Made by a program: the position numbers and the translations under genes
Shown here: positions 26,699 through 63,910 of the stretch, piece after piece
Numbering within the stretch: position 1 is the first letter of the stretch
Layout: the number at the start of each line of letters is the position of its first letter
Notes under the pieces: generated by a model
Databases searched by the model: none
Told to the model about the DNA's origin: nothing
The model's input: only the letters and a program-made list of their open reading frames with translations
Assembly (NCBI GenBank): GCA_963575745.1
Contig: CAUYUJ010000303.1
Location: 186,001 to 250,000 of the forward strand
Reading direction: 5' to 3'
Length of the DNA: 64,000 bases
From: Prorocentrum cordatum
Taxonomy: Eukaryota

Positions 26699-26705
26699 TT
26701 GTTCA

Positions 26706-38565: not shown

Positions 38566-40559
38566 GGGGGGCGGGGTCGCGTGGGGTGGGGGGGGGGGGG
38601 GGGCGGCGGCGCTCTGTGGAGCAGGCCGGGCTTTCGGAGCCGTCCTCCAACATCGTCGTCTGGCCGTCGGACCTCCTCCGTCGTCGCGCTTCCTCCCCCC
38701 CCCACGCGTCCTCCTCTCTCCTCCTTGCGCTCTCCTCCACCCTCCTTCCTCTTGCATCCCTCCCCCCTTCTGCCTCCCGCCTCCACCCCCCTCCCTCCCC
38801 ACTCGCTCCCTCCCTCCGTCGAGGGGGGGGTGCCTCATCGAGCGCTGCCGCCGCTCGCCCGCTCGGGCTCCAGCCCCCGCCCCCTTGCCTACTTTGGTCA
38901 GCCCTGGGTCTCGCGGATTCTTGCTGCCCGATGTTGGTCGTCGATTGGGCTCCCAGTGAGGCGACGGCGATCGACGGGCGCCGTCGTGGCGCGTCGCGCT
39001 TGCGACGTGGGCGCGGGCGCGAGGGCGCCGCCCGCACCCCCTCCGTTTTCGCCGCAGCAAGGGCAGCGGCGGGGCATGGGCGAAAAACGAAAGGGCGGGG
39101 GCTCGGGCAGCGCGGGTGCCACAGGCATCGGTTCTGCTCGAGCCGAAGCTTCATCGTTTATCGTCGATGCCCCGCCGCGCGTGCACCTCTCGGCAATAAT
39201 TATGCGGGGGGCGCGCGCCCAGCCCAATGAAAATCTCAAGAATCAGCGACGGGCGCATGTGCCCTGTCGGTGCAGGTCTCGAGTGAACGGTTCGGATAGG
39301 TTTGGGGGATTAGCTTCGCTTTGGGCGCCGTCTCCTTGCAAACTGCGTAGCTTCCCTTTTTTTCTGGAGCCTGCTGCCGCTGCGAGGCACAGGCAGCATG
39401 CGGGCCGCCCAGGCCGTTTGACACACGCCTGGCCGTGGGGTTATTCGCCAGTTGCGCGCTGCGCACCTGCGATGACAACTGGAGAAACATGATCGCACGT
39501 CGGGTTTGTGCTCGTGGCCTCTTGAGCCCCCATGCTCGTCCCAGCGTGGCCGACGGCGAGGTTGTCCGCTCTGGCATGATGCCACTGACGGTTGGGCACC
39601 ACCTCCCCGCGAGAAGGAGGGGGAGGAAGAGGAGGAGGAGGAAAAGGGAGGCGAGGAGGAGAGGGGGGAGGGGGAGGAGGAGTAGGAGGAGGAGGAACAA
39701 GTGGAGGGGTAGGGGGAGAAGCAACACACGGAGGAGCCGCAGCACTGCCGCCATACCCTTTACACAAATCGTGATACGCCTAGTTTGCGGTTCCTGTCCC
39801 GCTCGCCCGACTATTATTCATCCTTGCTTGCGTTGTCTGTCCGCCCCCCTCATCAGCGCCTCCGCATCAACCATCGCATGCCCCTCCTCGCTCAGCCGCC
39901 CCACGCCCTCCAAACTCAACTGCCAACCCCCATTCGCCCCTCATCTCCTCCCCCTCATCCTAAGCACAGCCACGTGCACTTGATCGCGTGGTAGCGCAAA
40001 CGCTAGATGTTTGGGGGTCACAGTCTCGCATTCCGAATCGGTGTTGCCTCAGAGGCTTCTTGACGTTGCATGGTCTGGGCTTCAGCGGCGGCGATTCGCG
40101 CTCGAGATTTGCCTCGACGAGGTTTTTTCGGCTGCTGTTTGGGCGCATCAAGCGATTGTCGGATAACGTAGATTGTCGCGTTCCTGGGTGGGCGTCGGCA
40201 ATGTTGCCCCAGGCTTCGTCGCAGGCGTCTGACGGGGGCGCGGCGAGGCGTTGTAGCGCCTGTGCGCGGGACGGATATCGGCCTGATCTATGTTTCGTCG
40301 CGGCGTGAGGTTGCGTTGCGAGTTGCCGAACGTACTTCGTAAGTGAGCTTTCTGTTCCCACCGCGTCGTGGGGCCATCTCAAGGCGTCTGGGGTCTTAAT
40401 GTCGGAGGCATGCATATTTATGATATGTTTGCCTGTGGCGTGTATGAATATTCGCGCGACGTAAGATGGTTGCGGCCGCGACATCCCCACTCGTTTCGGC
40501 GGCGCTTCTGGGGCCCCTGAACTCCCCAGCGCTGACCCTTAACCACGGCCTCGACAGGA

Positions 40560-42965
40560 GGGGGGGGGCGCCGGTGGGTTGCGGGCGAGAAATTGCGGGG
40601 TGGGAGGTCCCAAGAACGGAGCTGCCGTGGATGGGGGTGTCGGGGCGTGGTGGGAGAGGGGGGGGGGGGGGGCGGGGCGTCGGTGGGTTCCGGGCGAGAA
40701 TTGCGGGGTGGGAGGTCCCAAAGGAACGGAGCTGCCGTGGATGGGGGTGTCGGGGCGTGGTGGGAGGGGGGGGGCCGGGGTGGTTTCGGGCGAGAAATTG
40801 CGTGGTGGGTGGGAGGTCCCAAGAAGAACGGAGCTGCCGGGATGGAGGTGTCGGGGCGGGGGGGCGTCGGTGGGTTCCGGGGGGCGAGAAATTGCGGGGT
40901 GGGAGGTCCCAAGAACGGAGCTGCCGTGGATGGGGGTGTCGGGGCGCGGTGGGAGCGTGGATGGGGGGGCGTCGGTGGGTTCCGGGCGAGAAATTGCGGG
41001 GTGGGAGGTCCCAAGAACGGAGCTGCCGTGCATGGGGGTGTCGGGGCGTGGTGGGAGCGCGGGGGGGGCGTCGGTGGGTCCCGGGCGAGAAATTGCGGGG
41101 TGGGAGGTCCCAAGAACGGAGCTGCCGTGGATGGGGGTGTCGGGGCGCGGTGGGAGCGTGGATGGGGGGGCGTCGGTGGGTTCCGGGCGAGAAATTGCGG
41201 GGTGGGAGGTCCCAAGAACGGAGCTGCCGTGCATGGGGGTGTCGGGGCGTGGTGGGAGCGCGGGGGGGGCGTCGGTGGGTCCCGGGCGAGAAATGGGAGG
41301 ATCCCCGAGAACGGAAGCTGCCGTGATGGGGGTGTCGGGCGCGGTGGGAGCGCGGGGGGGGTGGGCGTCGGTGGGTCGGGCGGGAAATTGCGGGGGTGCG
41401 GAGGTCCCAAGGAATAGGAGCTGGCCGTGGATGGGGGTGCGTGGCGTTGGCGGGGCGCGGCGGGGGGGGGGCGTCGGTGGGGTTCCCGGCGAGAAAATTT
41501 TGCGGGGTGGAGGTCCCAGGAACGGAATCTGCGTGGATGGGGGTGTCGGGGCGTGGTGGGAGCGCGGGGGGGGGGCGTCGGTGGGTTCCCGGCGAGAAAT
41601 TCCGGGGTGGGAGGTCCCAAGAACGGAGCTGCCGTGGATGGGGGTGTCGGGGCGTGGTGGGAGCGTGGGGGGGGGGCGTCGGTGGGTCCCCGGCGAGAAA
41701 TTGCGGGGTGGGAGGTCCCAAGAACGGAAGCTGCCGTGGATGGGGGTGTCGGGGCGCGGTGGGAGCGTGGGGGGGAGCGTTGCTGGGTTCCGGGCGAGAA
41801 ATTGCGGGTTGGGGGGTCCCAAGAACAGTGATGCCGTGGATGGGGGTGTGAGGACGCAGTGGGAGCGTAGGGGGGGGGCGTCTGTGGGTTCCGTGCGAGA
41901 AATTGCGGGTTGGGGGGTCCCAAGAACAGAGTTGCCGTGGATGGGGGTGTCGGGACGTGGTGGGAGCATGGGGGGGAGCGTCGGTGGGTTCCGGGCGAGA
42001 AATTGCGGGGGGGAGGTAACAGGAAGCGAAGCTGCTGTAGGATATGCGGGGTTGTCGTGGTCGTGTGGGGGAGGGGCGCGGGTGGCGTCGGTGGGTTCCG
42101 GGCGAGAAATTGCGGGGTGGGAGGTCCCAAGAACGGAGCTGCCGTGGATGGGGGTGTCGGGGCGTGGTGGGAGCGTGGGGGGGGGCGTCGGTGGGTTCCG
42201 GGCGAGAAATTGCGGGGTGGGAGGTCCCAAGAACGGAGCTGCTGTGGATGGGGGTGTCGGGACGTGGTGGGTGAGCGCGGCGGAGGGGGCGTCGGTGGGT
42301 TCCCGGCAATTCCGGGGGGGGGTCCCAAGAACGGAAGCTGCCGGGCATTGAAGTGGATGTGGGTTTGCGGGCGTGGTGGGGGCGTGGGGCGGGGAGGCGT
42401 CGAGTGGGTTCCCGGCGAGAAATTGCGGGGTGGGGAGGGACCCCCAAGAACGGAGATGCCGTGCTAGGGGTGTCGGGGCGTGGTGGGAGCGTGCGGGGGG
42501 GGCGTCGGGGGGGAGCTGCGTGGATGGGGGTGTCGGGGCGTGGTGGGGGAGCGGGGGGGGGGGCGTCTGTGGGTTCCCGGCGAGAAATTTGCGGGGTGGG
42601 AGGTTCCCGAGAACGGAGCTGCCGTGTATGGGGGTGCGGGGCGTGGTGGGGAGCGTGGGGGGGGGGCGTCGGTGGGTTGCCGGGCGAGAATTTGCAGGGT
42701 GGGAGGTCCCAAGAACGTAGCTGCCATGGATGGGGGTGTCGGGGCGCGGTGGGAGCGTGGGGGGGGGCGTCGGTGGGTTCCGGGCGAGAAATTGCGGGGT
42801 GGGAGGTCCCAAGAACGGAGCTGCCGTGCATGGGGGTGTCGGGGCGCGGTGGGAGCGCGGGGGGGGCGTCGGTGGGTTCCGGGCGAGAAATTGCGGGGTG
42901 GGGGGTCCCAATGACGGGGTTTCGGGCGGGGGAGGGCGAGGAGTGAGGCTTTGGTGGGTTCCGGG
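40560..42965. repeat. G-rich satellite, ~100-bp unit, ~23 copies
   Basis: Unit GGGGCGTCGGTGGGTTCCGGGCGAGAAATTGCGGGGTGGGAGGTCCCAAGAACGGAGCTGCCGTGGATGGGGGTGTCGGGGCGTGGTGGGAGCG. GAGAAA anchors at 40886, 40988, 41087 and 41189. Confidence 0.95.
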
Positions 42966-44869
42966 CGGGGGGGGCGAGGAGGGAGGCGTTGGTGGGTGTC
43001 GGAGGGTTCGGGCCAGAACGTATCGTGTAGAGGACGTGGGTGGGAGATCCCAGGGCGGAGAGGCATTGAGGGGTGGTGAAGTGTCAAGGAGTGAGGTGTC
43101 GATGGCATTCGTGTAGGCTTAGCACAAAGGATATCGCACACGCCTCTAGGGTCGGCGGATTTCTGTGATGTGTCTACGAATTTGTTTCCCATGCGTCATA
43201 GTGCATGTTCGGATATGTTCTATTCAATTTTGCTCCTGAGGTTGACATGAGTTACTCCTTCTCTGCTCAGGCATGCTCTCTACTACTGTATCAGGTTTTG
43301 AGCGTACTGTACCTGACATCGCTCTTCACAGCCCCCTCCACAATACTCTGCCGCCCGTGTATATGCTACACACCTGCTGTGTTGCTACTATTGCTACTCC
43401 ACTTCTAATCAGCTCCATCCGACTCTATTCTAAGACAGCGCACTCGATTGTTATTGTGTTTCGGCCACCCTCCCCAGAAAGGTTGTGGAAGCCCGCGCAG
43501 GCAAGAGGAGACCCAAGGAGGCTGCAGGGTGCCCGGAGAGCTCCAAGAAACCAGAGACACCTCTACGGAAACCGGAGTCACTCTGGCAGCCACCATGCGG
43601 CCACGGGACCCACCATAGGAGTCTTCCGAAGGACCAGGAAGCATGGGGAGTCAATGGCGCCCTCGAGGGCGCGAAGTTATTCGCGCTTCGCGGTTCGACT
43701 CCGATTCCTTCTCATCCTCCTTCTCCCTTGGGAGGCGGCGCGAGAGCGCGAAGTTATTCGCACTTCGCGCCTCGCGCAGCGCGAAGCGCGAAGTCGGGAG
43801 CCCCTTGGGGAGTCCTCAGGAGGCTGGAGGAGGCCCCACTTGGGGGGCTTCGACCGTCCCGCGGGCGCCCGCACGGGGAGGGGGGGGGGAAGGCGGCCCC
43901 CCCACGTCGATGTTCGATGTGGATCCCCCGCGGTCGTCCCGCTGCAGGCTCCCTGTAAGAAGCCTTGTTGGGGGCCGAAAAAGCGACGCCGCTGCCGAGG
44001 ACCATCACGATCGAAGTGGGTACGGAAAGAATGGGTAGAAAGACCGACAGCAGTTCTTGTTCATTCTGATTCATTCTGAGCAGGGTTCGTTGTCAGTGTC
44101 GCTGCGGACGGTGTCCATTTGAGACGGAAAGCCTCCTGCCCAACAGCGGCCAGCGGTCGCTGCTGGTTTTGGACAGCATTTGCTGTTGGGCGTTGTATCC
44201 ATTTGTTCTGTAGTCATTTCGGGCGTTCAAAGAGGATGGGAGCCGCTCCGCCAAGAGCCCGGACGCGGGGCAGTATGGGAGATGACAACAGCGCCGGTGC
44301 CGACGTCGACCGTGCTGACGCCATCCGCTCCGGCCACGTTGACGTGCAATGCGGCCTCCCCTCCTTCGGGGGCCCCCAACGTTTTGTCTTCGTTCCGCCC
44401 TCGTTCTGTCTGCGTTCCGCCCTTGCTGCAAAACGGAGTCAAAACGACAACGGTGCACGAAATCGCCAAAACACATTTCAGGTCGAGCCCTGGCGCAGAA
44501 GTCATGAGGAGGCTTGTAGGCCGGTCGTGGCGACGTTAGGTAGGAGGGCGGTGGAGTTGGATTGGGTTTCGGCCCGCCCCCGGAATGGAAGACAACCTTC
44601 GGCGGGCCCCAAACAACCGGTGTGGTGACCACACCGCTTGGTGAGTCAGTGGGGGTTCGGGATCACCGCACGGTTTTGGGACTCGGGCCGTTCGGGCCGT
44701 TCTCCGAGGACGCCTCGGACGACCCGGGCCTCCGAGGTCCCAAGACCGCGCGGTGACGGACCACGAGGTGAGGTCTCTTGGGATTTCGAGGTCACCGCGC
44801 GGTCCGTTACCGCAGGGTTTGGGGATCGCCGTTCCCCGAGCCGCCCCGTTGGGCCCCAGTAGGCTTGAG

Positions 44870-45692
44870 TCGGGCGTGTCCCTTTACAGGGGGAACAGGG
44901 GGAATTTGAAACAGTAATAGAATAAACAAATAGTCTGGGGACGATGTTTTGATCATGTTGGGGGCATTTGTTTAGAATTTCGATGGTATTTTCAATCTTT
45001 CGTCCAAAATCGGACTGTAGTCGAGGGCGCAAAACACGCCCCTACCCTGGTTTACGAGGCGCTGTGTGCTGAACCTCCTGTGGGCCGACAGGGTAAACCC
45101 TGCGTGATGTGCCGCGTCCTGGCGGCTCTAGGCTCTGGGACTTCCCAGGAGGGTTACAGACCACGCACTTGTAACCCAGGGCAGGGTCGTTATTTCATCC
45201 CTCAAAAAATCGGCCTGCAGGGGGACATGCCAGAATTGACGGTAGGCGTTGCGCTTCAGGACCGTCGTCGTTTTCCATTCAGGGCTCGGGGAGGGGCTCT
45301 GGTTTTCGGGCCGCTCCCTCGGATTGGGTTACGTCGGGTTTGTCCCTCTACAGTTGTGGAAGTCGAATAATGGAGAGGAAGCTTGCTGCCAGATAATTTC
45401 CAGATGTTTAAAAGGTGTGTCAGACATGTTTGAAATATGTTTCAAATTATGGGTGAAACGTTTTTAGGACATGCTTTACACGTGTTAAACACATGTTGTA
45501 TTCAATGATAGGGTTGTTAGAGTGTCCATTGTCATGGCATCCACAACTCTACAGGAATAATATTCGAACATAGTCAAAACATAGTCCGGGGACGACTTTT
45601 TTGTTACCTCTGTTGACTATGTTTGGTGTATTTGTTTTTTGGTAGTTTTCATTTGTCGCCCAAAATCCGCTGGTAGGGGGGACACGCCTCAC
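44870..45692. mobile_element. Two related copies of MITE family D (GGCGTGTCCC...GGGACACGCC ends); the second is interrupted by MITE A
   Basis: GTCGGGCGTGTCCCTTTACAG (44870) resembles GTCGGGTTTGTCCCTCTACAG (45333). Both share ATAGTC-GGGGACGA and an ...ACACGCC end. Confidence 0.55.
45354..45546. mobile_element. MITE family A copy 3 with perfect 8-bp TSD
   Basis: CTCTACAG(45346-53)|TTGTGGA...TCCACAA|CTCTACAG(45547-54). Confidence 0.92.
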
Positions 45693-46845
45693 CTATGAGT
45701 TGGGTCGGCAAAACTCGCTTGTGGCCGAGGCTCGCCGTGGCCAGAGAAGCACATTTGCTCCTCACTCTGCGCTTCTTGTGGCATTCTGACTGCACGGGGG
45801 GCCGCAAAAGTAGCGACACCGTCGAGGAGTTGGGCCTCTCCGCCGAGAGCGCGGACGTGGTGAAGTGGGGAAGATGAGAGCAGTAACCACGCCGACGCCG
45901 CCCGCTGCCGACGCCGCCCGCTCAAGGGGGCGCGGTACACGCGGACGTGCCACGTGGCCTCCCCAAGCCGTTCCGCCGGAGGGCGTTGCGTTTCAGAACC
46001 GTTCTCTTGTCCCCACACCTCCCAACGTTCAGGAGGGGAGAAAACACAGACACAATTAATCGTCGACTCCCAGGAAGATATGGGAAAATATGGGAAGTGG
46101 GGAGGACGACAATTACCCAGAAAATATGGGAAAACATTGGGAATCCTCTTATTTGTGTGTGTATTTATTTGTGTGTCCCAGGGCCCCTTCAAAGGTGTTG
46201 AAAAAGCCGTACCTGCATCTTCCTCGGCGTTCTGCCTCTGCTCTCGGCTAGCCCCCCCCGGAGCGTCAAACAACGGTTCGGGATGAGGAGCCAGTCCCCA
46301 GGAAGGGATCGAGAATTCCAGTGACCCCGTATTGAAAAGTCAAGCCATCCGATCTCGAGGTCGTTGCTTTTGGGAAACGTGTTGCCCCACATCTGCTGGT
46401 GACGGAAGACAGGCGGCGGAGATAGGCGGGTTGGTTGGTTGGCGATTTGGTCGGTTGGGTGGTCTGGCCGGTTCGGCTGGCTTTCAGGTGGGATGGCTCG
46501 GGCAATCGGATGCGACTCCCTCTCCACTCACTTGCGCCCCTTTCGGTTTCAACTTGCACGTGTTGCAGTCGACGCCGCGACGTGCGCGGCAGGAGCTAGA
46601 CGCAACGCGCCCTGCGCGCGAAATTGCGAGATGCCGTTATCGCCCTAGCCTTACGCAAATGTGTTTTGAAAGTTGCGTTCGTGCTCAGAAGCGGTGCGTG
46701 CTCTTCGTTTCGGAGGGGGTCCGCTTGCGAGAGGCCAGCATGTCGCTATCGCCGCATCGTCGCGCAGGTTTCTTCAGATTGTCGTTCGCACTCCCATTTG
46801 CGCGCGGCGCATGCTTTTCTTTTCCGGGATCGTCGGAAGCAAGGT

Positions 46846-47053
46846 TGTGTACAAGAGGGCGAAATTGTGAAAAGAACCCGTCTCATACCCTCATCTCTAC
46901 TTCTCACTCTCCTATTTGCTCGCCTTATTGGCTCAAGGTGCTGGAGGAGATCAGGACGCTGGTCGCACAGGAGGAAAAGATCCCTATCTTTCCCTCCTTC
47001 CTATACCTACGGATCAGGTTCTCCGTACCTTTTGTACTCTAACCCCATACACA
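46846..47053 (+). repeat. Probable 5' LTR of the copia element (208 bp)
   Basis: Terminal inverted hexamers TGTGTA...TACACA directly followed by a PBS. No second copy in the window, so the left boundary is inferred. Confidence 0.6.
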
Positions 47054-47066
47054 GGTTATCAGCCCT
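47054..47066 (+). promoter_or_regulatory. Primer-binding site of the half-tRNA (copia/Ty5) type
   Basis: GGTTATCAGCCCT immediately after CA. It has one mismatch to GGTTATGAGCCCT, the complement of a tRNA-Met anticodon arm. Confidence 0.75.
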
Positions 47067-47272
47067 TCAAGATCACCATTCACCGAACCCTGCGTCGCGA
47101 TCTCGCTCGCAGCCCCGATGGATCCCCCGCGGCGCATGCGCCGTAAGGGATCCTTCGCGGCTCAGCGTCCGAGTTGTCCGACGGCGCGTCGACTCGGTGA
47201 TGAGTTGGAGAGCCTTGGAGGTGACCGTGTGGGTGTACCAGATACTCCCCCCCCAACTCCGACGGACCCGAA

Positions 47273-50200
47273 GTGCGTCTTGCGGCTGAGCTTCGCCGCC
47301 TCGCCGCCCACGGAGGGACAGGAAAAGGAGTAGGAGCAGGCGTTGGAGGAGTTCACACGCCTACCTTCGACCCTTCCTCTCGTCTTCCTAAGCCGGGAGC
47401 AATCCCTACTGCGTCGGGCGCAAGCCCCACTGGTCCCGATACTCCTGGGCGTTTCCGCGCATCCCGCCGTTGGAACAGTGGCTCTGGCCCAGCCAGCCCT
47501 GCCACCATACCCGCGTCGGCGAAAGTGGCGGCATTCGAGGAGCTCGGCAGACCAGTGGCGGCACAGCCGCAGACGCAGTATCTCAAGGTATCATCATCTC
47601 ATCCGACACCGCACACACACGGACACGGCCTTAGCCGCAGCTCGCCCATGCGAAACCTTCGTGAGGTCACAGGTCCCTACGACGAGAACAGGTCGAGCAC
47701 GCGTGCGGCCTCTCGGGGGGCAGACGCCCCTCACCTCTTTCTCTCAGACGACCTGCCGGCGGCTACGCCCGCTTCAGGTGACCTCGCTGAGCTGCGAGAC
47801 CAGGTTGAAACCTTCGTGTCCAGGCAGTACTCTGGACTGGTGCAGAGCGTTCAGACGAACGCCGCACACACTGCTGCTCTTCGGTAAGAATTCGACGGCG
47901 CCTTAGCGATCATAGATTCCAGGATCGCCAAAGATCGCCGTGTCCTAGGAGAGCTGCAGTTTCAGGTTGACCGCGAAGTGTCACACTCAGGTGAACGGTC
48001 CGCGACGGTCGAGCACCTGCGCAACTACCTCGCGCAGATGGAGCAGCAGCTTGTCGTCGTCCGCGACACAGGCGTTTCTGCGGTCAGGATCTTGCATGGC
48101 GAAATCCATGATCAACTGCGCAATCGACCCTCCCCCCCCTCCGACCGAGGCGCACGACCTCGGCGACGTTCACTCCCGGATCAATGATATCCGATCACAT
48201 GTGGAACACACTACGGCTACGCTTCGTGCTGAAGCATGTACCAATTCGTCGACCCTGACCGGGATGTTGCAGAATACTGAAAGAGTCATCGCTCAACGGC
48301 TTGACGCGACCAACGCTGTTGTGCAGCCCCTCAATGACCGGATCTCTGTGATCGAGCAGCGTTTACCTGGAGTACAGGGCGCCCTGGCAGAGTTGCGTGT
48401 TGGACGAGCCCAGACTGGCCAGCTGGGATCTCCTCCTACGGTTTACGATTTGGCCCCCTTCGCTGACAGGTGGCAGGAAGTTTGGAAGTCGGCGGACCAC
48501 GCGCAGCCTGTGCTCTCCCAGGCCCTTCGAGACAGAGTTGCTGAAAAAAGGTGCGTGTTGGGGGGTGTCTCGCACGTCTGGAAAGTGAAATGGAAGCGCG
48601 CAACGTCCGTCTCCGAGCTTGCGAGCAGAGACTTGATCGGTATTCCCAACGCTCTCGGGACACTGACGAGGAGATCACTTCGTCGAAGCACGATCTACGA
48701 TCTGAACGCCAACAAGTTGACCAAATACACGAGGACATGACGAACTGAACGAATCTACTGATCGACCACACCAACGACACTACACTTCACCCTCAGCCAT
48801 CGCCAGGCTTTGACAGGCCGACGGCAACGTCCGCTGAAGCACCGCACGCTGCTGTCGGACAACCAAGACGTAGGTCACCAGGAGCAGCCTCAGCGGCAGC
48901 TTCTGCACAGACACGCCACGTGTCTCCAGTGCGCGCAGAACCAACTAAGGGCGGTGTACCGGTACCCTCACAACCACTGTCTGCAGTTTCGGTTAACAGT
49001 ACTACTCCGATCAAGGAGTCCGACTCCGTACGAGTCCCTATCTTGCCCAAAATCATTCAGCTTCTTGAGCGGCAGCAAATGGTTGGGAATAATTTCGGAG
49101 CCGCTTCAGGGCGTCCCTCTATAGCATACGCCTTCCCCTGCGTCGCCGAACAACCCGGATATGCCTTTGAAGACTTGCAAGGCAGCGGTGTTTTTAAGAG
49201 CATCGACTGCAAGCTCGCAGCTGCTCTCAGTGACATCTTGTCCTCTGAATTGCGCTTCAAGATCAAGCTCATCGAGGCCAAGAAACACAGAGCTGGACGA
49301 ACGTTGAAAGGTCGCCAGATCTACTGGCACACCCTACGGTCCTACAATGTGACCGAGGTCGACGATGACCTTCACGATTTTGAGCGCCTCGTGGAATTGA
49401 GGGTGAGAGACGAAGATCTGCAACGATTCACTACTGAATGGGACGCTCTATTGTTGGACTGCCGAGAGGCACCCGACCACAAGATCCTCGAATCTCTGTT
49501 TCGCATGGGTGAAACAAGATATGTACGAGTATCAGAGAATGAAAATGAGCGACCCACATCGTACCTACGAGTGGCTTCGTCAACGAGTTCTCGACGTTCT
49601 GGAAATGAAACAACTCGAGAAGAACCAGAACAAGCTACGGTACGAGTATGAGAATCTCTCTCAGGTGAACATCTGCGCTGCATGGAACACAGGCAACTGT
49701 CGGGATGGGGATCTTTGCGCGGCTTTGCATACATACTCCAGGGAAGGCAGACACGACAGATCCCCCCGTTTTTCGAACTTCGAACGCTGGCGGCCACGCC
49801 CGCCGCAGCGTGTCTGCCCCTGCGAGTTCCAAAAACAAGCCAGGCATGAAGCACGTCTGCTTCGAATTCGCCAAGCGCAGTTCCTGCGCGCGCGGTGGCA
49901 AGCGCATTTCCCGTACATGGCGCAGCGCAGTTACTTCGTCCAGAATAATTGTCACAAAGGTGACAAATGCAAATGTGCCCACCTCGCTGCTGGTACGAAG
50001 ACACCTGAAAGGGGCCCCAGCCGTCCGCGGAATCCCAGTCAGGACAGCCGCTGCCGCCCACCATCCCGCGGATCTGGGAGCAGACGCTCTCCACAACGCG
50101 GGGGGTTCTGGAACGCGCGGGGCTCGTGCAAACGCCGACGCGACCGTTCTCGATCATCCTCCCGGAGATTTACAACCTCTCGAAGCCAGTCGAGAGGTCG

Positions 50201-50654
50201 ATACGATAGATCATCACGATCACCCTCCCGAGGCAGAGACGGACGTGGCGGAGGACGTGGCCGCGACAGATCATTAGGCAGCGACAGAGGACGTGACCGA
50301 CGCTCCATGAGCCGCAGTTCATCTCGTGGCTCTCCTCGGTATCGCGCACGTCCCCCTGCTATTGGTCGCCGCCCACGCCGCTCCGACCGCGGTTGCGTCA
50401 TCCGTGACAAGACCCTCATGGCCGTGCACAAGGCCAAGAATGCATGTACCACGCCACGACGTCGGGCACGTTTCGACACAGACAACGTGGAGTACTTCCC
50501 GTACACTGTTTCCAGCAAGGCCACTCTCGACACGTGGATCGACAAACCGAACGAAGGCGACATTGTCAACATGCCAGACCCGCTCCCACAGTGGTGGTGG
50601 AAACAGAGTGGTCAAGCTCTTCAATATTGCCAACGCGAAGCTCAATTATGGTAG
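47273..50654 (+). pseudogene. gag: gag-like region: coiled-coil, capsid-like block, three CCCH fingers, RS-rich tract
   Basis: FKSIDCKLAAAL...GRTLKGRQIYW...DLQRFTTEWD block, CAAWNTGNCRDGDLCAALH (49674-49730), SRSQSRGRYDRSSRSPSR. Position between PBS and protease. Confidence 0.7.
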
Positions 50655-50681
50655 AAGGACCTCCAGGACTACCTAGTATCT

Positions 50682-53600
50682 GTGGCAACACCCACTGCGA
50701 TTCCAGGTTCTCTCGATTTCGCTACGGAGTCACTTGGGACGATCCAGGAGTCGGTGGCGACACCTACTGTCGACCCTCCACGGTCGACAGCCGCCCTGAC
50801 CCGCTTCTGGGTTCTCGACAGTGGCTCTGCACACCACATCAAGGACAAGAACGAGCTTACGCAGACCGAATCTGATCGCATCTCTATCCGCGGGGAACAT
50901 TCTCTGGAAACGTCCAATGGTTACCGTGCTGTCAACGAGCACTGCGATATCGAATTACCAGGGGTAGGCTTACGGAGTTCAGCTTTTGCCCTGCCTGATT
51001 GTCTTTCGTTGCTCTCAGTGGGACAACTGATTGAAGTTGATGGTTTTCGGCAATTTCGGGACCCCGACCTGGGCTGCCTGCTCCAGGATCCGGGGGGCTA
51101 GTGGTGCAAAGCTCCCGTCAACAACCGGGTACCAGAACTACCCCTCGACGATCTTGGAAAAAATACCACCACCACGATTGTGCACTTCCACAGCACCACG
51201 ACGTCGCAGGCGCAAGCGTTCTCCTTCACGCTGCCTTGACACATGTTGGTGCTGCAAGGACCCAGCGGAGTTACCACCGACATCCGAACCACGGCTCCAC
51301 CGCGAGAATTGCCCGAAGAGACAATTCAAAGTTTCGCCCTGTGGCTCGATTACGTCTCAGCAGCAATGTTCATCTCACTCATGCGGGGGGCCTGCAAGCA
51401 CCTGCGGGGATGCCCCAGGCACAGTTCAGGCAGATCCCATCGATCCGATCGACACCACGTCGTCCTACCTCGAGGATCTGCCGGTGTCGACGCATGCTGA
51501 GCCCCACTCCGATGGTGACCCTGTTCGTCCGAACCGCCAAAAGAAGTCCATCGATCCCATGCGCTACATGACCCACAGCCCTAAAAACCCCGACCGTGAG
51601 GTCTGCTCTCGCACCATGGCGCAGAACGCCCCGTGCAGACGACAGCGCAAGCCGCATCCGCAGGCAGCCCCCACGGACGAGGACGCTACCTACGAGGCTT
51701 TCGTGCCGAAGAAATTCGGGGAGGCGCTGACTGCCGACCACGTTGTCTTGGCCAAAGACGATGCCGCTGACAAACATGGCGACAAGTGCGCACTCGTTTC
51801 CTCGACAGATACACCGGCATCATCATGGCATATCCAGCCGTGCACAAAGACGCAGCTACAACGAAGGCATCTTTTCAGCAGTTCATCGCCGCGAACGACG
51901 ACGTGAAGCATATCTATACAGATAACTCCGGAGAGCTTTTGAAAGCGCGCCGCCAGCTGGGATGACGACGCGACGCTAGTACTCCTCATCGTCCACAGAT
52001 GAATGGACTGATCGAGCGCATTGTCAAGATCGTCATTCTGGGTACTCGAGCTGTGTTACACATGTCTGGGCTGGGACACGAGTGGTGGAAGGAGGCCATG
52101 CAGGCCTTCTGCTGTGGACACAACTTTGTGCATGTATCCACTGGCGTTGCTGCCCTCAGCGATGAGCACGCAGAGAAGACAGCGCACGAAATCCGATTTG
52201 GTGAAAGTGTTACCGGGCACTGCATACCTTTTGGTGCTCGGATCTTTTGGAAATGCTTCAATCCCGAGATCAACGATGAGACGGCGAAGTTTGAAGAACA
52301 TATTCGGGAAGGGTAGTTCATGGGTTACCATCTACACTCGGGTGGACGTTTGTCTGGAGATTATCTCGTCTTGGACACGGCTACATACGCCAAACACCCT
52401 GACGGCGACTTGTGTCACGTGCACAGAGTCAAGGACATCATCATCCCGGACGGTACGTCCACCTTCCCTGTGAAGGGCGGTACGCCCCCTGGGCGACACA
52501 CCTTCCCCTGACCTACCGCTCACCTACCCGACCGAGTGGGGGGACCCCTCTCTCATGCCGCCAGACGCCAGTCCAGCTGCTGCCCATCCATCAGCTCCAG
52601 AAGTCGCTGCACCAGCGCCAGAGCTTGTTTTTGGGAGCAGCGTGGATAATGCATCATCCGGCACATCCGTACCCCGCGAAAGAAGCTTTTCCGTCCGACG
52701 GACGATGTGATACATATTCCTGTTCCTGTCGATCAGCTTGATGTCACAAGGGACTTCGAGACGACTTCTACTTTCCCAGGCGAGAGTGTCTTTCGAGACG
52801 TTTGGGACGGTTTTAGTGCCGCAGACCACCGTGAACTTAGTGAGCTCCCCAAGATGTTGCCAGTCGGCGAGATGGTGGTCTGCGGTCGTGAGACACGCGT
52901 TCAGGCTACTACGCGCCCAGACCACATCCTTCCCGAACATTGGAAGACTTTGTCCCGAGGCCAACAGAAGAGAGAAATGGACTACGCAGAAGACATCAAA
53001 CGAGCCCGCGAGGTACGTGAGCGGGCTGCCCTTCGGGTGTAGACACGACAGGACCAACGAGCTAAAATCTTTCGCACCACAACGGCTGGTGGACTTACAT
53101 GGAATACCGTGGAACGCCGCATTACCTATGATATGGACAGCGGAGCTGTCATTCGAGACGAGGGCGTCAAGGGTGTGACAAACAAGGAGATCCTGTATGC
53201 CAGAATTCCTGGTGGGCCACGCGACATTACCACAGTATTACATTACCGCCTACCCTAAACATCGCCTGCTGGAGTTGCACGTTCTCTGGTATTGATCGAC
53301 TGTGAGGGGGGCTACGACTTTGGGCGTGTGAACCCGCTCAACCGCAAGTTCACCCTGCCGGTGGCAATGCCCACTATGCCACGTGGGCCCGATTACACAC
53401 AGGTACACAGAGAAAAGCGACCTGCGCCATCATGGACACGCCCTGCCCTTGTTACACGAAATCTGAACAAACGCGAAGTTGCTGCTGAGCCACGAGCACA
53501 AGAGGCCCTACGCAAGGAATACGAACGCCTTGAGAAGAAACAGGCATGGATGATAGAAGCCGCTGCTGAAAAAGAAGACGTTGAGGTAGAAGCGATTCGT

Positions 53601-55620
53601 ACTGGGAGGAAAATTCACTTCTTCAACCAATTGGAGCTCTCATATGTGAAACATGAAGAACTTACTCCGGAACTACGCAAGTTCAAAAGGCCGCGTGGTG
53701 GTTCAGGGCAACACTGGCAAAGACGAGACTGGCTTAGCTGCCATTTTCGTTGACGCGGCGTCCAGTGCGTCACACATTGAGGCTTCTAAGCTTTGTGACG
53801 CCACCGCTTTATTGCCAAACTCCGGACGGCCAGATTGACCCGGTCGGTACGTGGATTACGCTCCCCAAGTGGCGTCAGCTTGACTCCTGGGCTAAACGCA
53901 GGAACCCAGTGTGCCGACTCCGCTTGGCACTCTACGGACACCCCTTGGCAGGCGTGTTCTGGGAACGCAAGTGTCGCACGTGCCTGGGGGGCGTTGGTTT
54001 CGAGCCCATCCCTGGCTGGGAATGCGTGTGGAGACGCAAGAAGTTGGGCCTGATACTCTCCATATACGTGGACGACTTCAAGCTTGCGGGACCCGCCGCC
54101 AATCTTCAGGCCGGCTGGGACCTGGTCCGCTGGAGCGGCATTGAGCTCGATCCGCTTACTCCGTACTCTCAATACCTTGGCTGTGGACAACAGGCTTATG
54201 ACGTTCCGCGGAGCGTCTTCGACAAGCGGATGGCTACCATTCGCCCAATGTTACCCAACCACAGCGAGAACTATTATCATACAGCTAAACAAGTCCGCGG
54301 TATCCGACATGATATGCTTGGCTTTACCGACCAATGCATGAGCGCTACCTTGAGTGCGCCTCTAAGCTTGCCAAAAATGCAGGCTCACGCCGAAAACGCT
54401 CCGACTCCCCGAGGGCTTTGCGATCTACATCGCTTGGTTCCTCTGGGTCGGTCGCGAGACCCGCTGGCGTTCTCAACGCTCGGTCGCGATCGTCCAGCCG
54501 AGCTGGGTCGATCGAGAGACCCACTGATCTTTCGCGTATTACGACTGTCACTAACGACGACCTTCCCGCCGCAGAGACACCTGGTATCGAGGGCACTTCC
54601 TTGACTGAGTCCGATTACTCTGACGAGGGCATCCTCGGCCAGGACGCGGCGAGCGTGTTGATGAAGATTCTCTACCTGGCACGATGCTGTCGTGTTGATC
54701 TATTGCACCCGGTGTGCATGTTAGCCAGAGAGATTACCAAGTGGAACACTACGGGTGACAAACGCCTTCCTCGGCTCATCTGCTACCTCAAGACGACTCG
54801 CACACATTGTCTAGATGGACGGACAGGTGATACTCAGGACCAGTTGTCCATCATGCTCTTCGCTGATGCCTCCTTTGCCGACTGCATTTCCTTGTCTCAG
54901 TCCACCACAGGCATCTTCGTGGCGTTCGTTGGGCCAAACACATTCTCCCCCGCCAATGCCGTGTGCAAGAAACAGACGGTCGTCTCTCACTCCTCCACGG
55001 AGTCCGAGATCGTCGCTCCTTGTTCTGCACTACGACTTGAGGGTCTTCCACTGCTTTCCTTTTGGGAGGCCGTGGTGGAGGTTGCCAGAACCTGCAGGGA
55101 GAAGACCAATTGCATAGGTTGCTTGGGATGTGTCGCTACGACGATATGTCCAACCCTGGCCGCCAAGCAGCGGCGGCGTAAGACGCCGCCTCGCAAGGCG
55201 GCCCTTCAAGGAGATCCCCCCCTAGCCGGAGGCAGCTCCCGCTGCAGTCGGAGACGCGCGCGACTCCCAAGAGGCGCACGATTTCCCGCGAAGGTATCTT
55301 GTTACACGTGGACCCAGAGCCGGCTCCTACGAGCAGCTCGCCTGAGGTGCACCTTATTGTCCTGGAGGACAACCAGGCCGTGGTCAAGATTGGCCAAAAG
55401 GGGCGTACACCAGCTCTGCGTCATCTTCATCACACACATCGTATCAATTTGGATTGGATATGTGAAACATGCCTTTTCGATCATGTCGAGCTTAAGTATG
55501 TAGGTACTAAAGAACAGATTGCCGACATGATGACCAATCATTTTGATCCCAAGAAAGCAGATCTCTGGAGGGATTTATTGGAACTATCGCTTATCTTCCC
55601 CTTCGCTCCCATGCAGTGTC
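50682..55620 (+). pseudogene. pol: copia pol: aspartic protease, integrase, reverse transcriptase, RNase H (frameshifted)
   Basis: PR: WVLDSGSAHH (D at 50817). IN: HSPKNP..VC, LTADH, IYTDNSGEL, PQMNGLIER. RT: KGRVVVQG, WITLP, ALYGHPLAG, SIYVDDF (54065). RH: FADASFA, SHSSTESEI, EDNQAV, QIADMMT. Confidence 0.95.
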
Positions 55621-57183
55621 CTCCGAGGGACCCTTGGCGACCGTTGAGAGGGCCCAGGAGGCCAGACGGTCTACCTCACATTGCCGAACTTCCGAAGGTT
55701 GATGGATGCGAAGAGGGTTGTGATATACTACTCACTGGCCGTGAAATCTGGGGCGCGCCAGGTACACGACGCGGACAACAGTGCGTGGGGCCAAAGGAGC
55801 ACGAGGGACTGCATGCATGTACCATATCGGCGCCCCTGCCGGGGCTGGATCCTCTCGCCAACCTCGTGCACGGGCCCGTTCGCCACGCGGTAGACGCTCT
55901 AGTCAGTCCTCTTCGTCCACCCTCGGTCCCGCCCACTCTAGGACGTTTGTTATGCGATCACGTTGCTCCCGCAGCTGTTTTACGACTCGAGCAACTACGC
56001 TTGCCAGCATCTTGCTCGCACCGCGCGCACCTACTATTAAGGGGAACGGTTCCGCCCCCGATTTTCCCTCATCTGAGATGCCCGAGGTCCCACCTCTCCA
56101 CCTTGTCGGCCGGGCCGTCGGCGGCGCCGTCCGCTGGGGTCCCGAGGCCGATGATGATGATCGCGTGGGCCCTGCGCTTCTGCTCCAGACAGGCCGCAAT
56201 CGTGAAGGCGACGAAGGATACCACTTCCTTCATCAGCTCCGCCTAGAACAGCGCCGAGTACCGCTTGCGCGCGCCAGACGACTCCGCGCTCGTCGAGACC
56301 ACCCGCGCCGCCACGCTGGACGTGACTGGGGCGGTCGGCAACAGCATGGAGCCTGTCGGCGGCAACGCCTACTGTGAGCACAACACGGCTACGGTGACCT
56401 CATGGCTTTCGATGTTGAAAGCCATGGGTACGCTGTTCAGGAGGCTACCCGCAACTTCCCTGACCATCTGAGCGCCACGATCCCTGGTCGGGCTGGTTCT
56501 CGAATGTGCCCTCCAATGGACCTCGCCACGCAAATGCTGGATGCCGAGTGGCGGATCTTGCATAATGATTGGTCGACGGTCGGGTGCGCTATGCTTAGCC
56601 AGTGGTCGGAGGATACGGTCAAGGAAACGACATATCTGTATGGGCGACTACTTCATGCCGCCAGGCCTCTATGTGGAAGGATTAATGATTCCGAATCACG
56701 CGCGCCCTCTTGACCGAGAGCAAGTGAAATTACCAGTGCGGGCTCCTGCCTTGGCCAGGACGTCCGCTGTGCCGGGACAAATCGGCCGTGCTGTGGAGGA
56801 CCACCACTACCTCCAGCAAAACAAGAAACGCGCCCGAAAGCTCATTAATTACTTGGCTGACGAAGCGTGGCGGTGTTGGAGGGATTGGTTCTAGTCCCCA
56901 GACGGTGGCAACACCTTCTGATCACCCTGCCGGCTGGGAACCTTTCCCGCGCCTCGGCATGCAGCAATAGCAGCCCTATGAAGAGGGCGGCCTTCGCTCG
57001 TCCGAGTTCCCGGAAGGAGACGAGCCTGGCGCTACTCCAGGATCCATGTTGGGCTCATTGGAATTACCCCAGGTGAGATACAGCGCGTTCTGTGGTGGTC
57101 GATTGGTCAAAGCCCTTCTCTCCGAGCGAGGCTGGACGGGCATGGTACAAGAGGACTTGGGACCTGCAGGCCATGCGTACAAA

Positions 57184-58150
57184 TGGACTTGTCTCTACAC
57201 GGATTCCACATGGATCATGCACAAGAAGAAGGGTGACAAGGCCGAGGACTTCAAGCGCTACGTCGGCCTTGTACCGCTCTTTATTCCATGTCTCAACAAG
57301 GCAGAGCACATGGGCGGCGCCACGCTCGAGCATCTGGCAACTATGATCCGCGACGACATCATGATGCGGGCGTTCTCGCACGAAGATTACAAGGAATTCT
57401 TCAAGCAGAACGACACACCCGTCGGCCAGGGTTTGATCTTATTGCCAGAAGCCGGTGGCGACACCCGCTGCGATATGCAAACCCTTCGTGCACGTGCTGC
57501 TGCGGTGCAGGAAGAGCGTATTGCACAAGTTCTACAGTTGCAGACCGCTGCCACGGTCGAACAGCGCATGATGATCGGTACGATTCGTCAGGCGCGAGCC
57601 TTACTGCACTGCACTGACAATGCTCATGTGGCAGAGTGGCGCAAGATCAATGAGCAGATCTGGGAATATTGGAGCACAGCGTCCCCTGCATATGTCAAGC
57701 AACGGCACGATTGCAGAGGCCTTAATGCTTTCGTTGTTTGGGGTGTCAATGATATCGGCTGCGCCAGCAACAACCAACAGTGGTTAGACGTACGGCGCCA
57801 TGCTGATCGTGCTCCAAAAGGACTGGACGGCCCGAGAACAACCACATCAAGTACGAGAACGGCGTTCCAGAGCACATGCCTACACACGTGGAGGTTGATG
57901 TGTCACGATTCATTGACGTGATGCAGTCTTTTCGATGCCCTGCAGTAGTGGGCCCAGGTTTGTCCAAACAATGAGTCTTGCACCCCAACTTCGACTACCT
58001 GACATGTGACCTCACACGTCACATGAAGGCCAGAGGTATCGCTATTCTGCCTGCGGACCAATGGATCAACTCCTACGACACGCTATCTCCTACGGCTTGG
58101 CACGCCGAAGTGAACAGTTACAACATGGCGATGATGACGACTCAGTGCAA
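57184..58150 (+). pseudogene. SGNH/GDSL-hydrolase-like domain in the cargo
   Basis: Blocks in the correct order: LYTDST (57193-57210), GGATLEHL (57313), FVVWGVND (57730-57753), AWH (58095-58103). Blocks I and V are non-canonical. Confidence 0.5.
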
Positions 58151-59541
58151 CGACGCCGTTTGCTACCGCATTTTCTGCGATGTTATTTAATCATTACCTT
58201 ATCAGCCATATCCGTTTCGACCACCACTAGTGAAGGCCTTGACGGGTTCCCAGGCATACTCCCAGGCCAAGGACATATCAGCGGCTCTGGACTTCCGCAA
58301 CAGGATGACGGATAATTGGAAGCGATACCACTGCCTTACCACGTTGATGATTCAGGCCGCCAAAGAGATGGCCCAATGTGCTTGGATGGCTTCATGTGCC
58401 AGCGGCAACTTACTGCTATCCATGCCGGTGGCAGCGCCCGCTGATGAGCAGGTTCAGCAACGTCGCCCCGTTCCAGGGACGTCAGGAGAGCCTCCATCGG
58501 CATCGCCAGCACCACATAGCACAGATGATGACCCGTTCTGCCCGGCATACGAGGAGCTGTGCTACAGCCTGATTCTCTTGATCGACGCGTTCCCGGGCGT
58601 TTGGGCATGTTACGATTCCGATGGAAGGAAGACACTACTGTCGCAGCCCAACCTCCATCCCATCGACATGCATGCACTCACCTGTGCGGTCTACGAGCAG
58701 CTCGTAGACAAGATCGAGGCTAAAGTGGAGGCAACTACGGCAAACACCAATCGCATCATCCGAGAGCGCGCGTTGCTGGCGCCTCTCTGTGATGGGCCTC
58801 GACTCGACAATGCGGATACCATCCAGAAGTGCAAGGGTTACCGCGCTCTGACCGCTCTGGACCGCATCGATCCGCAGGAAGCCCCCCCGAGAGCACCGCC
58901 GGCACCGCCGCTCGACGCACCGCCCTCCGCGATCGAGCCAACGCCGGCCGCGAGGCCCGCTGCAGTACCTTCTGCAGCCGAACCTGCGACGACGCCGGCG
59001 CCTCTGCCCAGTCCGAACAAGCCGCCACTGCCACCGGGCCCACCACCGAAGACCATGCCGGCCACGCGCTCTGTCGCAGGGCCGCCTGCCCATCCCCCAT
59101 CGGACGCAGACATGGCTGCGGTGCTGCAGGCAACTCCTGCTGACGACGTTCCTACGTCCGTTCAGCGTTTGGACAGAATGCGTGTGCTTCCATGGCAGGA
59201 CTGCTGTGAGCGTTCTTCCCATGAAGAGCCAAGTCAGTTCACTATGTTCGACAATACATGCACTCTTCTTGAATATAAGCTCCGTGCGCAACAGCCAGAT
59301 GAGCATCATCACGTGCCCCCATCCACTTCGGGGCACGGGCGCGCCAGGAGGCATGCAGTGCATCGCTGACAAGGTTTGGGCGGCTCAGTTGGACTACGAC
59401 GATTGCGTGATCACCCACGCGCCTGATCTCGACCATTCTGGCTGCTTTCCTGAATGTAAATGGATTTCTCTACCACCATACAACGAAACGCCGCATGGTC
59501 CCGACCTGATATTGACAAAATATATTGGCCGCCCCAACTAC

Positions 59542-60356
59542 ATGAGCAAAGATATCACGACTATGCTTCGCCACATCTCGTATAGCAAGCACTTCAGCAT
59601 CGATCAGTTCACTGATCGGCGTATTAATATATGGAAAAGGCGCTCAAATGCTAGGTGGAAATGCACCAGCACATGGCGTTCCTTCGAAGAAATGGTGGAG
59701 TGGGAATTCTACAACCGTCGTTATCGCAGCAACGGCCCATCCGATGAAACAGCCATTGAGCACTTCCTTAAAGACGGCATGGACTGGGAAGCCTGGACTG
59801 ATTATTACCCGATCTTTATCCTTCGTGCTTTACAGACGCACATTGATGCAGAGATGAATAGGGTTGAGATCTACGGTGAACCATTATCCGCCGGGAGCAA
59901 TCCCCGCGGCTTCGATGGGAGCAGCGTTATTGCCATGCGTTGTGTAGGCGGACATAGTTCGGTCAATCCGCGTTCCCAGCCGTGGAACATGGGCTGGGAA
60001 AGTCTACAGTGGACCGACGTGAAATACCGCCACCACGGCACGACATACCGTGCTTGGAGCAACATTTTGACGCATGGAATCATCCCAGGATATCAAGACA
60101 CTACTCAGCGAGACAACAGCATCAGGAGGAACCGCGCACCGAAGCCTTCTACAGTTCGAGTACGTACATGAGGGGTGCGCAGCCTAATCCCCACACGTTT
60201 GTCCCACCATGCAAGTTCAATCCTTGGAAGAACGAGGTGAAGATCGTGATTGACATGTATATTGCCACACAATCTGGCTGCAGATTCTGGCTTGGCGCCC
60301 AAGGCGCTATCGTTGCCGAGGACGCGGTTCCTCCCGCGGCAATTGTGACCACTCGC
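59542..60356 (+). pseudogene. tpt1: Tpt1/KptA-family RNA 2'-phosphotransferase (ADP-ribosyltransferase fold) domain in the cargo; one frameshift near 60135
   Basis: MSKDITTMLRH (cf. LSKxLSxxLRH), MNRVEI (cf. KQRFxL), MRCVGGHS (cf. IRANQGHS), HHGTTYRAWSNILTHGIIPG (cf. HGTxxxxWxxIxxxGL), RxR-TEAFYS, EVKIVIDMYIATQSGCRFWLGAQGAIVAEDAVPPAAI (cf. IxIDxxxAxxxGxxFxxSxNGVILxxxIPP). Confidence 0.85.
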
Positions 60357-63300: not shown

Positions 63301-63438
63301 TCCCCGTGGGGGCGGCACTTATGACCGGGCCACGCGTCGGAATCTTGCCAAAGCTGCCTGTGTCGGACCTGCCCTGGGATCAAATCGCCATGGGGGGAAG
63401 GGCTCAGGGGTGGGAACCGATCCTGATACCCCCCCCCC

Positions 63439-63464
63439 ACACACACACACACGCACACACACAC

Positions 63465-63495
<31 letters not shown>

Positions 63496-63532
63496 AACAC
63501 ACACACACACACACGCACACACACACACACAC
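63439..63532. repeat. (CA)n/(CACG)n microsatellite
   Basis: Direct reading. Confidence 0.95.
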
Positions 63533-63789
63533 GATGCCATGACGCCGCCGCCTCGCGCTGACCCTGGCGACACTGCTGGTGCCCGCGCCACCAGCGCGCT
63601 GGCAGCGATGCCCGCTGGGCGGCGCGGCGACGCCGCCGCCGCCCCGCACCCGAGCGGCTGGCAGCCGGCCGGCAGAAGCGCTGGCGCCCGCGCCCCAGCG
63701 ACGCCCCCGCGGGCCTAGCGGGCGCGCACCGCCGACGAGTACGCAGCGCACTGGCGCCACAACCTCGAGGGCAGCCGGTGGGGCCCCAG

Positions 63790-63910
63790 GTGCTGGAGCT
63801 ACCACAACAACTTCTGGATGTACATCGCGGAGAACAGCGATGAATTCGTGTGCATCCGCGACCTGCAGTGCAATCCTCGATTCTACAATTGGCACGCGCG
63901 GACCGCGCGG
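63790..63910 (+). CDS. Probable host-gene exon, product unknown
   Basis: CCCCAG|G acceptor, stop-free CWSYHNNFWMYIAENSDEFVCIRDLQCNPRFYNWHARTAR with strong GC3 bias, |GTAACT donor. Confidence 0.6.

Follow-up and report, generated by a model that had tools for sequence, protein, structure and literature searches.

A probable anticodon-arm primer-binding site in a dead copia-type element of Prorocentrum cordatum, with a Tpt1-like pseudogene downstream on the same strand

Retrotransposons of the copia type, including copia itself and Ty5, can be primed from the anticodon arm of a tRNA, as described in the available portions of three reports (PMC10275265, PMC10886601, bioRxiv 10.1101/2025.04.25.647736). 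In rust fungi, Copia elements and the non-autonomous Helenus elements use the anticodon loops belonging to the tRNAs for Tyr, Ile and Asp and to tRNA-iMet, according to the accessible part of Kojima 2024 (PMC10886601), and PMC2774666 contains nothing on types of primer-binding site (PBS). In dinoflagellates, the 15-base motif CCATTTTGGCTCAAG (DinoRL) is treated as a tag of reverse-transcribed mRNAs in the accessible part of PMC12014239. Some Tpt1 enzymes remove terminal 2'- or 3'-phosphates or cap 5'-phosphates with ADP-ribose, as far as an excerpt of a review on these enzymes indicates.

Here we compare with these systems a locus in a 64,000-nucleotide stretch of the Prorocentrum cordatum genome; this whole stretch is referred to as the window, and coordinates are positions on its forward strand. 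We regard the following joint reading as reasonably probable. The 13-mer at 47054-47066 is a PBS of the half-tRNAiMet type in a dead Ty1/copia copy, its central C is a product of decay, the copy is processed or rearranged, and a Tpt1-like open reading frame (ORF) downstream is either an accessory of the element or its neighbor. Judging from complementarity, the active ancestor would have begun minus-strand synthesis on a 3'-truncated tRNAiMet, as Ty5 and Drosophila copia do, and the central C would have been acquired by substitution after insertion. The copy itself would be either the reverse-transcribed form of a trans-spliced element RNA, running from the spliced leader (SL) through R/U5, PBS, gag and pol, or a rearranged insertion. 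The Tpt1-like ORF, 2.5-5 kb past pol, would be an accessory ORF of the element lineage or part of a neighboring repeat.

The candidate PBS reads GGTTATCAGCCCT (47054-47066, + strand) and is immediately preceded by CCCCATACACA, which ends in ACACA. It agrees at 12 of 13 positions with GGTTATGAGCCCT, the Ty5-type half-tRNA(iMet) PBS motif. The single difference is central, at the wobble position 47060. The reverse complement of the site, AGGGCUGAUAACC, has a GGG/CC stem of the initiator type and a loop with the anticodon GAU, compared with CAU in iMet. The pairing partner corresponds to nucleotides 28-40, the anticodon stem-loop, of a yeast- or plant-type tRNAiMet (12/13), from which the iMet of this host may differ. 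GGG/CC in such a partner is the mark of an initiator-type anticodon stem. These observations bear out two statements of the initial annotation, namely that the site pairs with a tRNA anticodon arm and not with a 3' CCA end, and that its one mismatch falls at the wobble base, giving GAU for CAU.

A direct reading of the site finds no TGG after the CA, which means that a conventional 3'-CCA PBS is absent. TGGTATCAGAGCC, presumably the conventional 3'-CCA-type sequence, fits here only with four mismatches and a gap, and this candidate was rejected. The 13-mer lies directly after CA, on the strand of the only retroelement pol in the window and 52 nt upstream of the first ATG of the gag frame (47118), with the protease about 3.7 kb and the reverse transcriptase (RT) 6.3 kb downstream on the same strand. 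From its sequence and setting, the 13-base site is very probably the PBS of a dead copia-type retroelement copy, and a PBS of the anticodon-arm type is nothing unusual in one branch of the copia superfamily. ARAGORN found no tRNA genes in the 64-kb window, and no Rfam family was matched at gathering score.

The region on the gag side (47118-50654, +) is spread over several frames in the ORF list. Its last ORF (49407-50654) has weak zf-CCCH matches (E 0.004, below the cut-off) and a tail rich in Arg, Ser and Gly; Pfam recognized no gag family in this region. A decayed pol in copia order follows at 50808-55667 (+), identified by RVT_2 and by colinear tblastn matches, and it contains in-frame stops. 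The broken ORF at 53738-54604 matches RVT_2 (PF07727) with E 1.4e-6 and 28.5 bits, just below the cut-off of 31.6. When the RT piece was used to search for longer relatives, 23 proteins of 33-53% identity were returned, 19 of which carry a precomputed PF07727 assignment. Seven polyproteins (P0036, P0037, P0042, P0032, P0041, P0049 and P0029) align by tblastn colinearly over 50808-55667 at 26-59% identity, in segments that lie in frames 3, 1, 3, 3, 1, 2, 1 and 3. Matches to protease, integrase, RT and RNase H that are colinear across eight frame segments indicate copia-type order and at least six frame changes.

By tblastn against these relatives, all on the + strand, the protease lies at 50808-51047 (motif DSGA by eye), the integrase side at 51520-53018, the RT at 53361-54340 (YVDD) and the RNase H side at 54535-55667. 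Even in the intact relatives Pfam recognizes RVT_2 only and misses the integrase as well, and the domain names come from weak Pfam matches in relatives (Asp_protease_2, SH3_retrovirus) and from motifs read by eye (DSGA, NG..ER, YVDD). An RVT_2-type RT and the order protease-integrase-RT-RNase H are both present, consistent with membership in Ty1/copia. Pfam runs on 16, 97 and 15 ORFs of 43-64 kb returned only RVT_2, the weak zf-CCCH and a sub-threshold PF01885 match, and the 32 large ORFs of 1-39.5 kb gave no match. Three of the pol relatives (P0037, P0041 and P0049) have an extra domain with the stretches ELCCG and PCTGGS that by eye resembles a cytosine DNA methyltransferase, and P0041 has a further stretch that by eye resembles a 2OG-Fe(II) oxygenase; Pfam at E ≤0.01 confirmed neither assignment on these extra domains.

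Directly upstream of the PBS, the stretch 46867-47053 (+) has the form TGTG...CACA, its CA end adjoining the site, and is a candidate short LTR or, alternatively, an R/U5 leader behind an SL relic. We searched for a second LTR by blastn of 45500-47100, by blastn of the window against itself (word sizes 11 and 9) and by local alignment of 46867-47053. The window contains no LTR pair and no partner of either 45500-47100 or 46867-47053, and the 3' end may lie past 64000. The best local alignment scores of the candidate LTR were 24-30, compared with a shuffled maximum of 28. The combination of an LTR pair and a target-site duplication that would mark a Ty1/copia insertion was accordingly not seen in the window. 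No polypurine tract (PPT) of at least 12 purines was found, and tblastx among 47-56 kb, 56-64 kb and 1-46.9 kb gave no matches that would indicate paralogy. A repeat search in the window returned only a G-rich tandem array. At 40400-43200, tandem repeats rich in G, each unit being about 100 bp long, occupy about 2.8 kb, with a GC content of 0.65-0.68 and a GC skew of up to +0.43.

A relic of the DinoSL/DinoRL leader lies at 46916-46937 (+), 116 nt upstream of the PBS, and by eye retains 16 of the 22 bases of the full leader. Within it, CCTTATTGGCTCAAG (46923-46937) agrees with the DinoRL 15-mer at 13 of 15 positions. At up to two mismatches, this 15-mer has three matches in the window against 0.12 expected, a number reached by none of 100 shuffles. 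The locus thus has a DNA-encoded SL relic on its 5' side, as DinoSL-tagged retrocopies do. Between 47 and 64 kb there is no run of seven or more A, and hence no sign of a poly(A) end, which may lie beyond the window.

Because the relic stands just ahead of the PBS, a trans-spliced element RNA may have given rise to this copy by way of a processed cDNA, and such an origin would account for the lack of an LTR pair. With a relic of only 13/15 (16/22) and no poly(A), this reading is incomplete. Taken together, the lack of an LTR pair and the presence of the relic suggest that we are probably dealing with a processed copy or a rearranged insertion. An SL relic immediately 5' of a retroelement PBS suggests that trans-spliced retroelement RNAs are recycled into the genome, a process relevant to the accumulation of dead element copies in dinoflagellates.

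Two other SL relics, both better than the one at 46.9 kb, occur on the + strand of the window, and both are hallmarks of retroposed genes. The first (16231-16267) is tandem, with a full leader bearing three mismatches followed by a perfect 15-mer. The second (26678-26699) retains 20 of 22 leader bases and falls near the start of a 629-aa open frame (26605-28491), inside its first 100 bases. The relics mark the genome as dinoflagellate-like, in agreement with the origins of the homologous proteins. Long degenerate arrays of short repeats are found at 9330-11130 (+) and, inverted, at 15685-16230, 5 kb apart; the inverted copy ends beside the tandem relic. An assembly gap of 100 N occupies 26288-26387.

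Contigs of the public run X1 (contigs only, share 0.21; possibly the source of the window itself) cover this part of the window, and runs X2 and X3 gave almost no matches. On 45001-64000, 8696 X1 contigs have a likeness of at least 80%, and all 30 bins are covered. By likeness, 698 contigs are at 99% or above, 1379 at 95-99%, 3170 at 90-95% and 3449 below 90%. This coverage and divergence indicate that the whole 45001-64000 stretch is repetitive and that its copies are old. Summed X1 depth is 19 at 46269-46902, 507 at 46903-47536, 185-1600 over 46903-55778 and about 73-405 over 55779-64000; by the caveat of the tool itself, summed contig depth cannot rank parts, and the edge at 46.9 kb and the lower depth downstream are hints only.

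In one X1 contig, likeness is kept to 47065 and lost beyond; after 12 unrelated letters this contig continues at 60668, 3 nt past the stop codon of the Tpt1-like ORF (60663-60665). The joint is seen in this contig alone, under a permissive threshold, with a depth of 7.9 and 30 letters on its shorter side. Its structure suggests a derivative with an internal deletion, in which the leader, the PBS and a part past the ORFs remain. If so, the unit reaches beyond 60.7 kb. The region that this contig joins to the PBS (60668-64000, +) is repeated and contains more open frames (for example 61748-62653), none of which was matched by Pfam.

Another X1 contig, with a depth of 91.6, omits 1610 bases of the gag side (48426-50037), from which it follows that a deletion variant of the family exists. 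Upstream of the element, a repeat of about 190 bp has three copies in the window (243-433, 6119-6282 and 45354-45546) with 70-82% identity. Summed X1 depth peaks in the bin beside the third copy (45635-46268), where it reaches 10186, far above every other bin.

Downstream of pol, a 316-aa open frame from the ORF list (56971-57921, +) matches no Pfam family at E ≤5. It is followed at 58191-60665 (+) by a long broken ORF with a Pro-rich N part and then a Tpt1/KptA-like domain (about 59491-60407). The Tpt1-like motifs begin in frame 59302 (MLRH, VGGHSS and HHGTT) and run on into frame 59301 (VIDM and FWLGAQGAIV). Pfam at E ≤0.01 on the 97 ORFs of 43-64 kb did not flag this ORF, and our initial regular expression for Tpt1 motifs had no match at the locus. 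At a relaxed threshold PF01885 matched the window piece with E 0.014 and 15.9 bits, below its gathering cut-off of 26. A HMMER search of 1.84 billion representatives returned only 24 proteins at E ≤0.001, mostly short fragments and none of them a canonical Tpt1. Ten of the 24 comprise seven from one EukProt data set, two from ENA contigs no longer than 4.9 kb, and one chimeric Prorocentrum/Polarella gene model. Protein searches with the ORF gave near relatives in 1 of 187 candidates and longer relatives in 0 of 385.

Two of these relatives clarify the structure of the window copy. P0003 bridges a frameshift near 60114, and P0025 bridges another at 59320-59333 and connects the Tpt1-like domain to the upstream Pro-rich frame (58191-59369). 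Bridged in this way, the frames form one long broken ORF. With two frameshifts, the window holds no intact Tpt1-like reading frame, and its copy of the gene reads as a pseudogene.

The family to which this copy belongs was better recognized through P0009, a relative 36-46% identical to the window. P0009 matches PF01885 with E 2.2e-4 and 21.7 bits (cut-off 26) over profile positions 73-177 of 177. In a protein atlas, its residues 1-215 had 29 of 30 matches in PF01885 clusters (score 0.93, 183 shared features). The motif SK.(I/L)(T/S)..LRH, found in all 11 family rows with coverage of that part, provides a candidate for the R-H of the catalytic tetrad, and a conserved Arg precedes EAF(Y/F)SSS in six clear rows and one variant row of the family. 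By resemblance only, LRH and the Arg before EAF may correspond to residues of the catalytic Arg-His-Arg-Arg tetrad, whose third Arg was not located; the motifs LRH, GHS and HGT and the C-terminal strands of the family likewise resemble those of Tpt1/KptA. Searches of PDB chains by sequence (window piece, P0009) and by profile (A1, A2) gave no Tpt1 match.

Structural comparison was more informative for the C-terminal half. Confidence in the AlphaFold model of P0009 is restricted to parts of residues 20-205, with pLDDT blocks of 53-89 in the NAD+ lobe. Foldseek against the PDB placed Tpt1/KptA entries at all of ranks 1-20 (E 3.1e-4 to 2.6e-2). VIA-align matched the same model to 19 Tpt1/KptA entries (Z 9.2-6.1, rmsd 2.8-3.5 Å, 83-106 residues, 10-23% identity), compared with Z of at most 5.8 for other ADP-ribosyltransferase folds, and the Tpt1/KptA matches span the C-terminal NAD+ lobe. 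In this moderately confident model the relative P0009 thus has the C-terminal NAD+ lobe of Tpt1/KptA. The model of the N half (59491-60168) has a mean pLDDT of 45, and the N part (residues 1-140) gave no usable match in the protein atlas. Given the null results of the PDB profile searches, the poor N-half model and a tetrad matched by resemblance only, we call the ORF Tpt1-like, and not Tpt1. The family consists of divergent Tpt1/KptA relatives that Pfam misses, known mostly as short fragments from a few eukaryote data sets.

The initial annotation had called this ORF the Tpt1 cargo of the element. A Tpt1/KptA-like domain is indeed present downstream on the strand of pol, as the PF01885 matches and the NAD+ lobe fold of P0009 indicate. 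Its membership in the element fared less well, and that the ORF belongs to the copia element is, in our view, quite possible but somewhat doubtful. The principal alternative, which we consider close to an even prospect, is that the Tpt1-like ORF and the other frames of 56-64 kb are an independent repeated gene or mobile element abutting a 3'-truncated copia copy. The ORF starts 2.5 kb after the end of pol, and those 2.5 kb are without homology; neither a PPT of at least 12 purines nor an LTR marks an end of the element around it. A profile search of the 23 related long copia polyproteins found the Tpt1-like domain in none (best E 1.1). An RT-centered metagenome scan yielded 12 loci of 33-54% identity, all of which lack both the Tpt1-like domain and any site of the GGTTATNAGCCC type; long flanks are confined to two of these loci, L003 and L004, and neither has an LTR pair. 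A metagenome scan centered on Tpt1 (alignment A3) gave 38 pattern matches and viral contigs gave nine, none of them related.

Members of the Tpt1-like family sit on the chimeric Prorocentrum/Polarella model and on short ENA contigs with no copia known adjacent, and summed depth is lower over 55.8-64 kb than over the copia part, a weak measure that cannot rank parts. These observations point to an independent unit. However, the ORF lies on the strand of pol, nothing that would mark the edge of a second unit was seen, and no SL relic, LTR or other unit start was detected between pol and the ORF. The one contig that links the PBS to 60668 hints at cargo over a neighbor, and we also count for cargo the extra domains that P0037, P0041 and P0049 carry within their polyproteins. 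Literature searches that combined retrotransposons with Tpt1 or PTS_2-RNA gave nothing relevant, and in them no Tpt1-like accessory ORF appeared in print. Should the ORF prove to be enclosed by LTRs, it would represent cargo of a kind new among retroelements and could help to answer what Tpt1 enzymes do outside splicing. Either way, the region that holds this member of the family is matched by many diverged X1 contigs, and the member stands close to a copia-type element on its strand.

The C at 47060, which reads G34 for C34, was initially annotated as either decay or a different primer tRNA. The statement was a fair one, and most simply the C is a substitution gained after insertion. Decay is the simpler reading because the pol of the same copy has its many frame changes, and a single PBS substitution is what such decay predicts. 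The divergence of the X1 contigs, mostly below 95% likeness, would also lead us to expect one change per 13 bases. The G-to-C change on the + strand that decay needs belongs to a rare class, seen at 95 of the 2963 differing places in X1.

An intact PBS that pairs with another tRNA, with the loop CUGAUAA and an Ile-like anticodon GAU, would instead represent a primer switch, which we consider unlikely. The flanks AGGG...CC of the partner are those of an initiator anticodon stem and differ from the flanks in known Ile tRNAs, few eukaryotes have a cytosolic tRNA-Ile(GAU), and the element copy is heavily decayed. On the other side, none of the 40 differences listed, out of the 2963 in X1, falls at 47060, and at 47072 the window base is absent from 11 contigs out of 11, a pattern weakly compatible with a C shared among copies. 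Primer switching also has a precedent in the anticodon-loop-primed copia and Helenus families, including the use of tRNA-Ile-AAT (accessible part of PMC10886601).

We think it quite unlikely that the 13-mer is a chance match and no PBS. When up to one mismatch is allowed, both strands of the window together hold a single match to GGTTATGAGCCCT where 0.09 would be expected, and a match arises in 9 of 100 shuffles; at up to two mismatches there is still one match against 1.25 expected, which is not above chance. Nor does any LTR pair support an element edge here. Against chance stand the CA before the site, the shared strand with pol and the short distance to the gag-side ATG, and the site coincides with the point where the likeness of the X1 contig ends. 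Placement (strand, CA and gag ATG) carries far more of the weight of the PBS reading than the match count alone.

It has also been proposed that PBS and ORF work together. In its broader form, a dinoflagellate copia lineage would encode, in a 3' accessory ORF, a divergent NAD+-dependent enzyme of the Tpt1/KptA-like kind whose targets are the replication intermediates of the lineage itself, acting either on a primer 2'-phosphate (at a cleaved end or a splice junction) or by ADP-ribose capping of 5'-phosphate RNA or cDNA ends; this we hold to be very unlikely. The narrower form in the initial annotation, in which the Tpt1 of the element strips the terminal 2'- or 3'-phosphate from a cleaved tRNA half and so gives RT a 3'-OH, is speculation without support here and highly improbable. 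To our knowledge, copia and Ty5 prime from an iMet half and encode no Tpt1. A variant, in which the enzyme removes the splice-junction 2'-phosphate at position 37, inside the 13-nt duplex of primer and PBS, if the tRNA is spliced by a fungal- or plant-type ligase, is equally improbable.

What speaks for healing of the primer is the position of the ORF 3' of pol on the same strand, with no SL relic or LTR between, the one contig that joins the PBS to a point 3 nt beyond the ORF stop, and the fact that the rust-fungus tRNAs used for anticodon-loop priming are all intron-bearing in the available part of PMC10886601. Against the idea stand a window copy that is broken and a family whose N (RNA) lobe and tetrad are only putative, the absence of the domain from the 23 long relatives and the 12 loci (two with long flanks), and a literature search for Tpt1 in retrotransposons that found nothing relevant; none of the results links the ORF functionally to the PBS.

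Among known systems, LTR retrotransposons with captured accessory ORFs offer one point of comparison. Bdelloid LTR retrotransposons reportedly carry such captured ORFs, and dinoflagellate retrotransposons are said to include some that bear a DNA methyltransferase. The likeness here lies in extra enzyme ORFs in or beside gag-pol, and the Tpt1-like ORF is candidate cargo only. To Tpt1/KptA itself (PF01885; PDB 7yw2, 7yw3, 9ld4, 8tfz, 8tg4 and 6e3a) the likeness is the NAD+ lobe fold of P0009. The window family differs in falling below the Pfam cut-off, in an expansion of about 100 residues in the N half, in having R-x-E-A-F-Y-S where Tpt1/KptA has a stretch like R-x-H-V-H-L-S, and in a window ORF that is long, Pro-rich and frameshifted.

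With DinoSL retrocopies, as described in the accessible part of PMC12014239, the locus shares a DNA-encoded SL relic 5' of a transcribed unit. It differs in that the RNA tagged is that of a retroelement with a PBS and not a host mRNA, in the degenerate state of the relic (13/15) and in the lack of a poly(A) end in the window.

The rust-fungus Copia and Helenus elements (PMC10886601, accessible part) share with it an anticodon-loop PBS within the copia superfamily and set a precedent for primer switching. Derivative elements in the same source, which retain the PBS region together with a short piece of the internal region on its 3' side, are a precedent as well. These elements belong to another host group, their Ile primer has the anticodon AAT and not GAT, and no accessory enzyme is described for them in that part of the report. 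Compared with Ty5 of Saccharomyces and copia of Drosophila, the locus has a central mismatch at the wobble base, lacks an LTR pair within the window, carries an SL relic upstream and is heavily decayed in its coding region. In common with both it has a PBS right after the CA of U5, the PBS motif at 12 of 13 positions, the order protease-integrase-RT-RNase H, an RVT_2-type RT and the motif YVDD.
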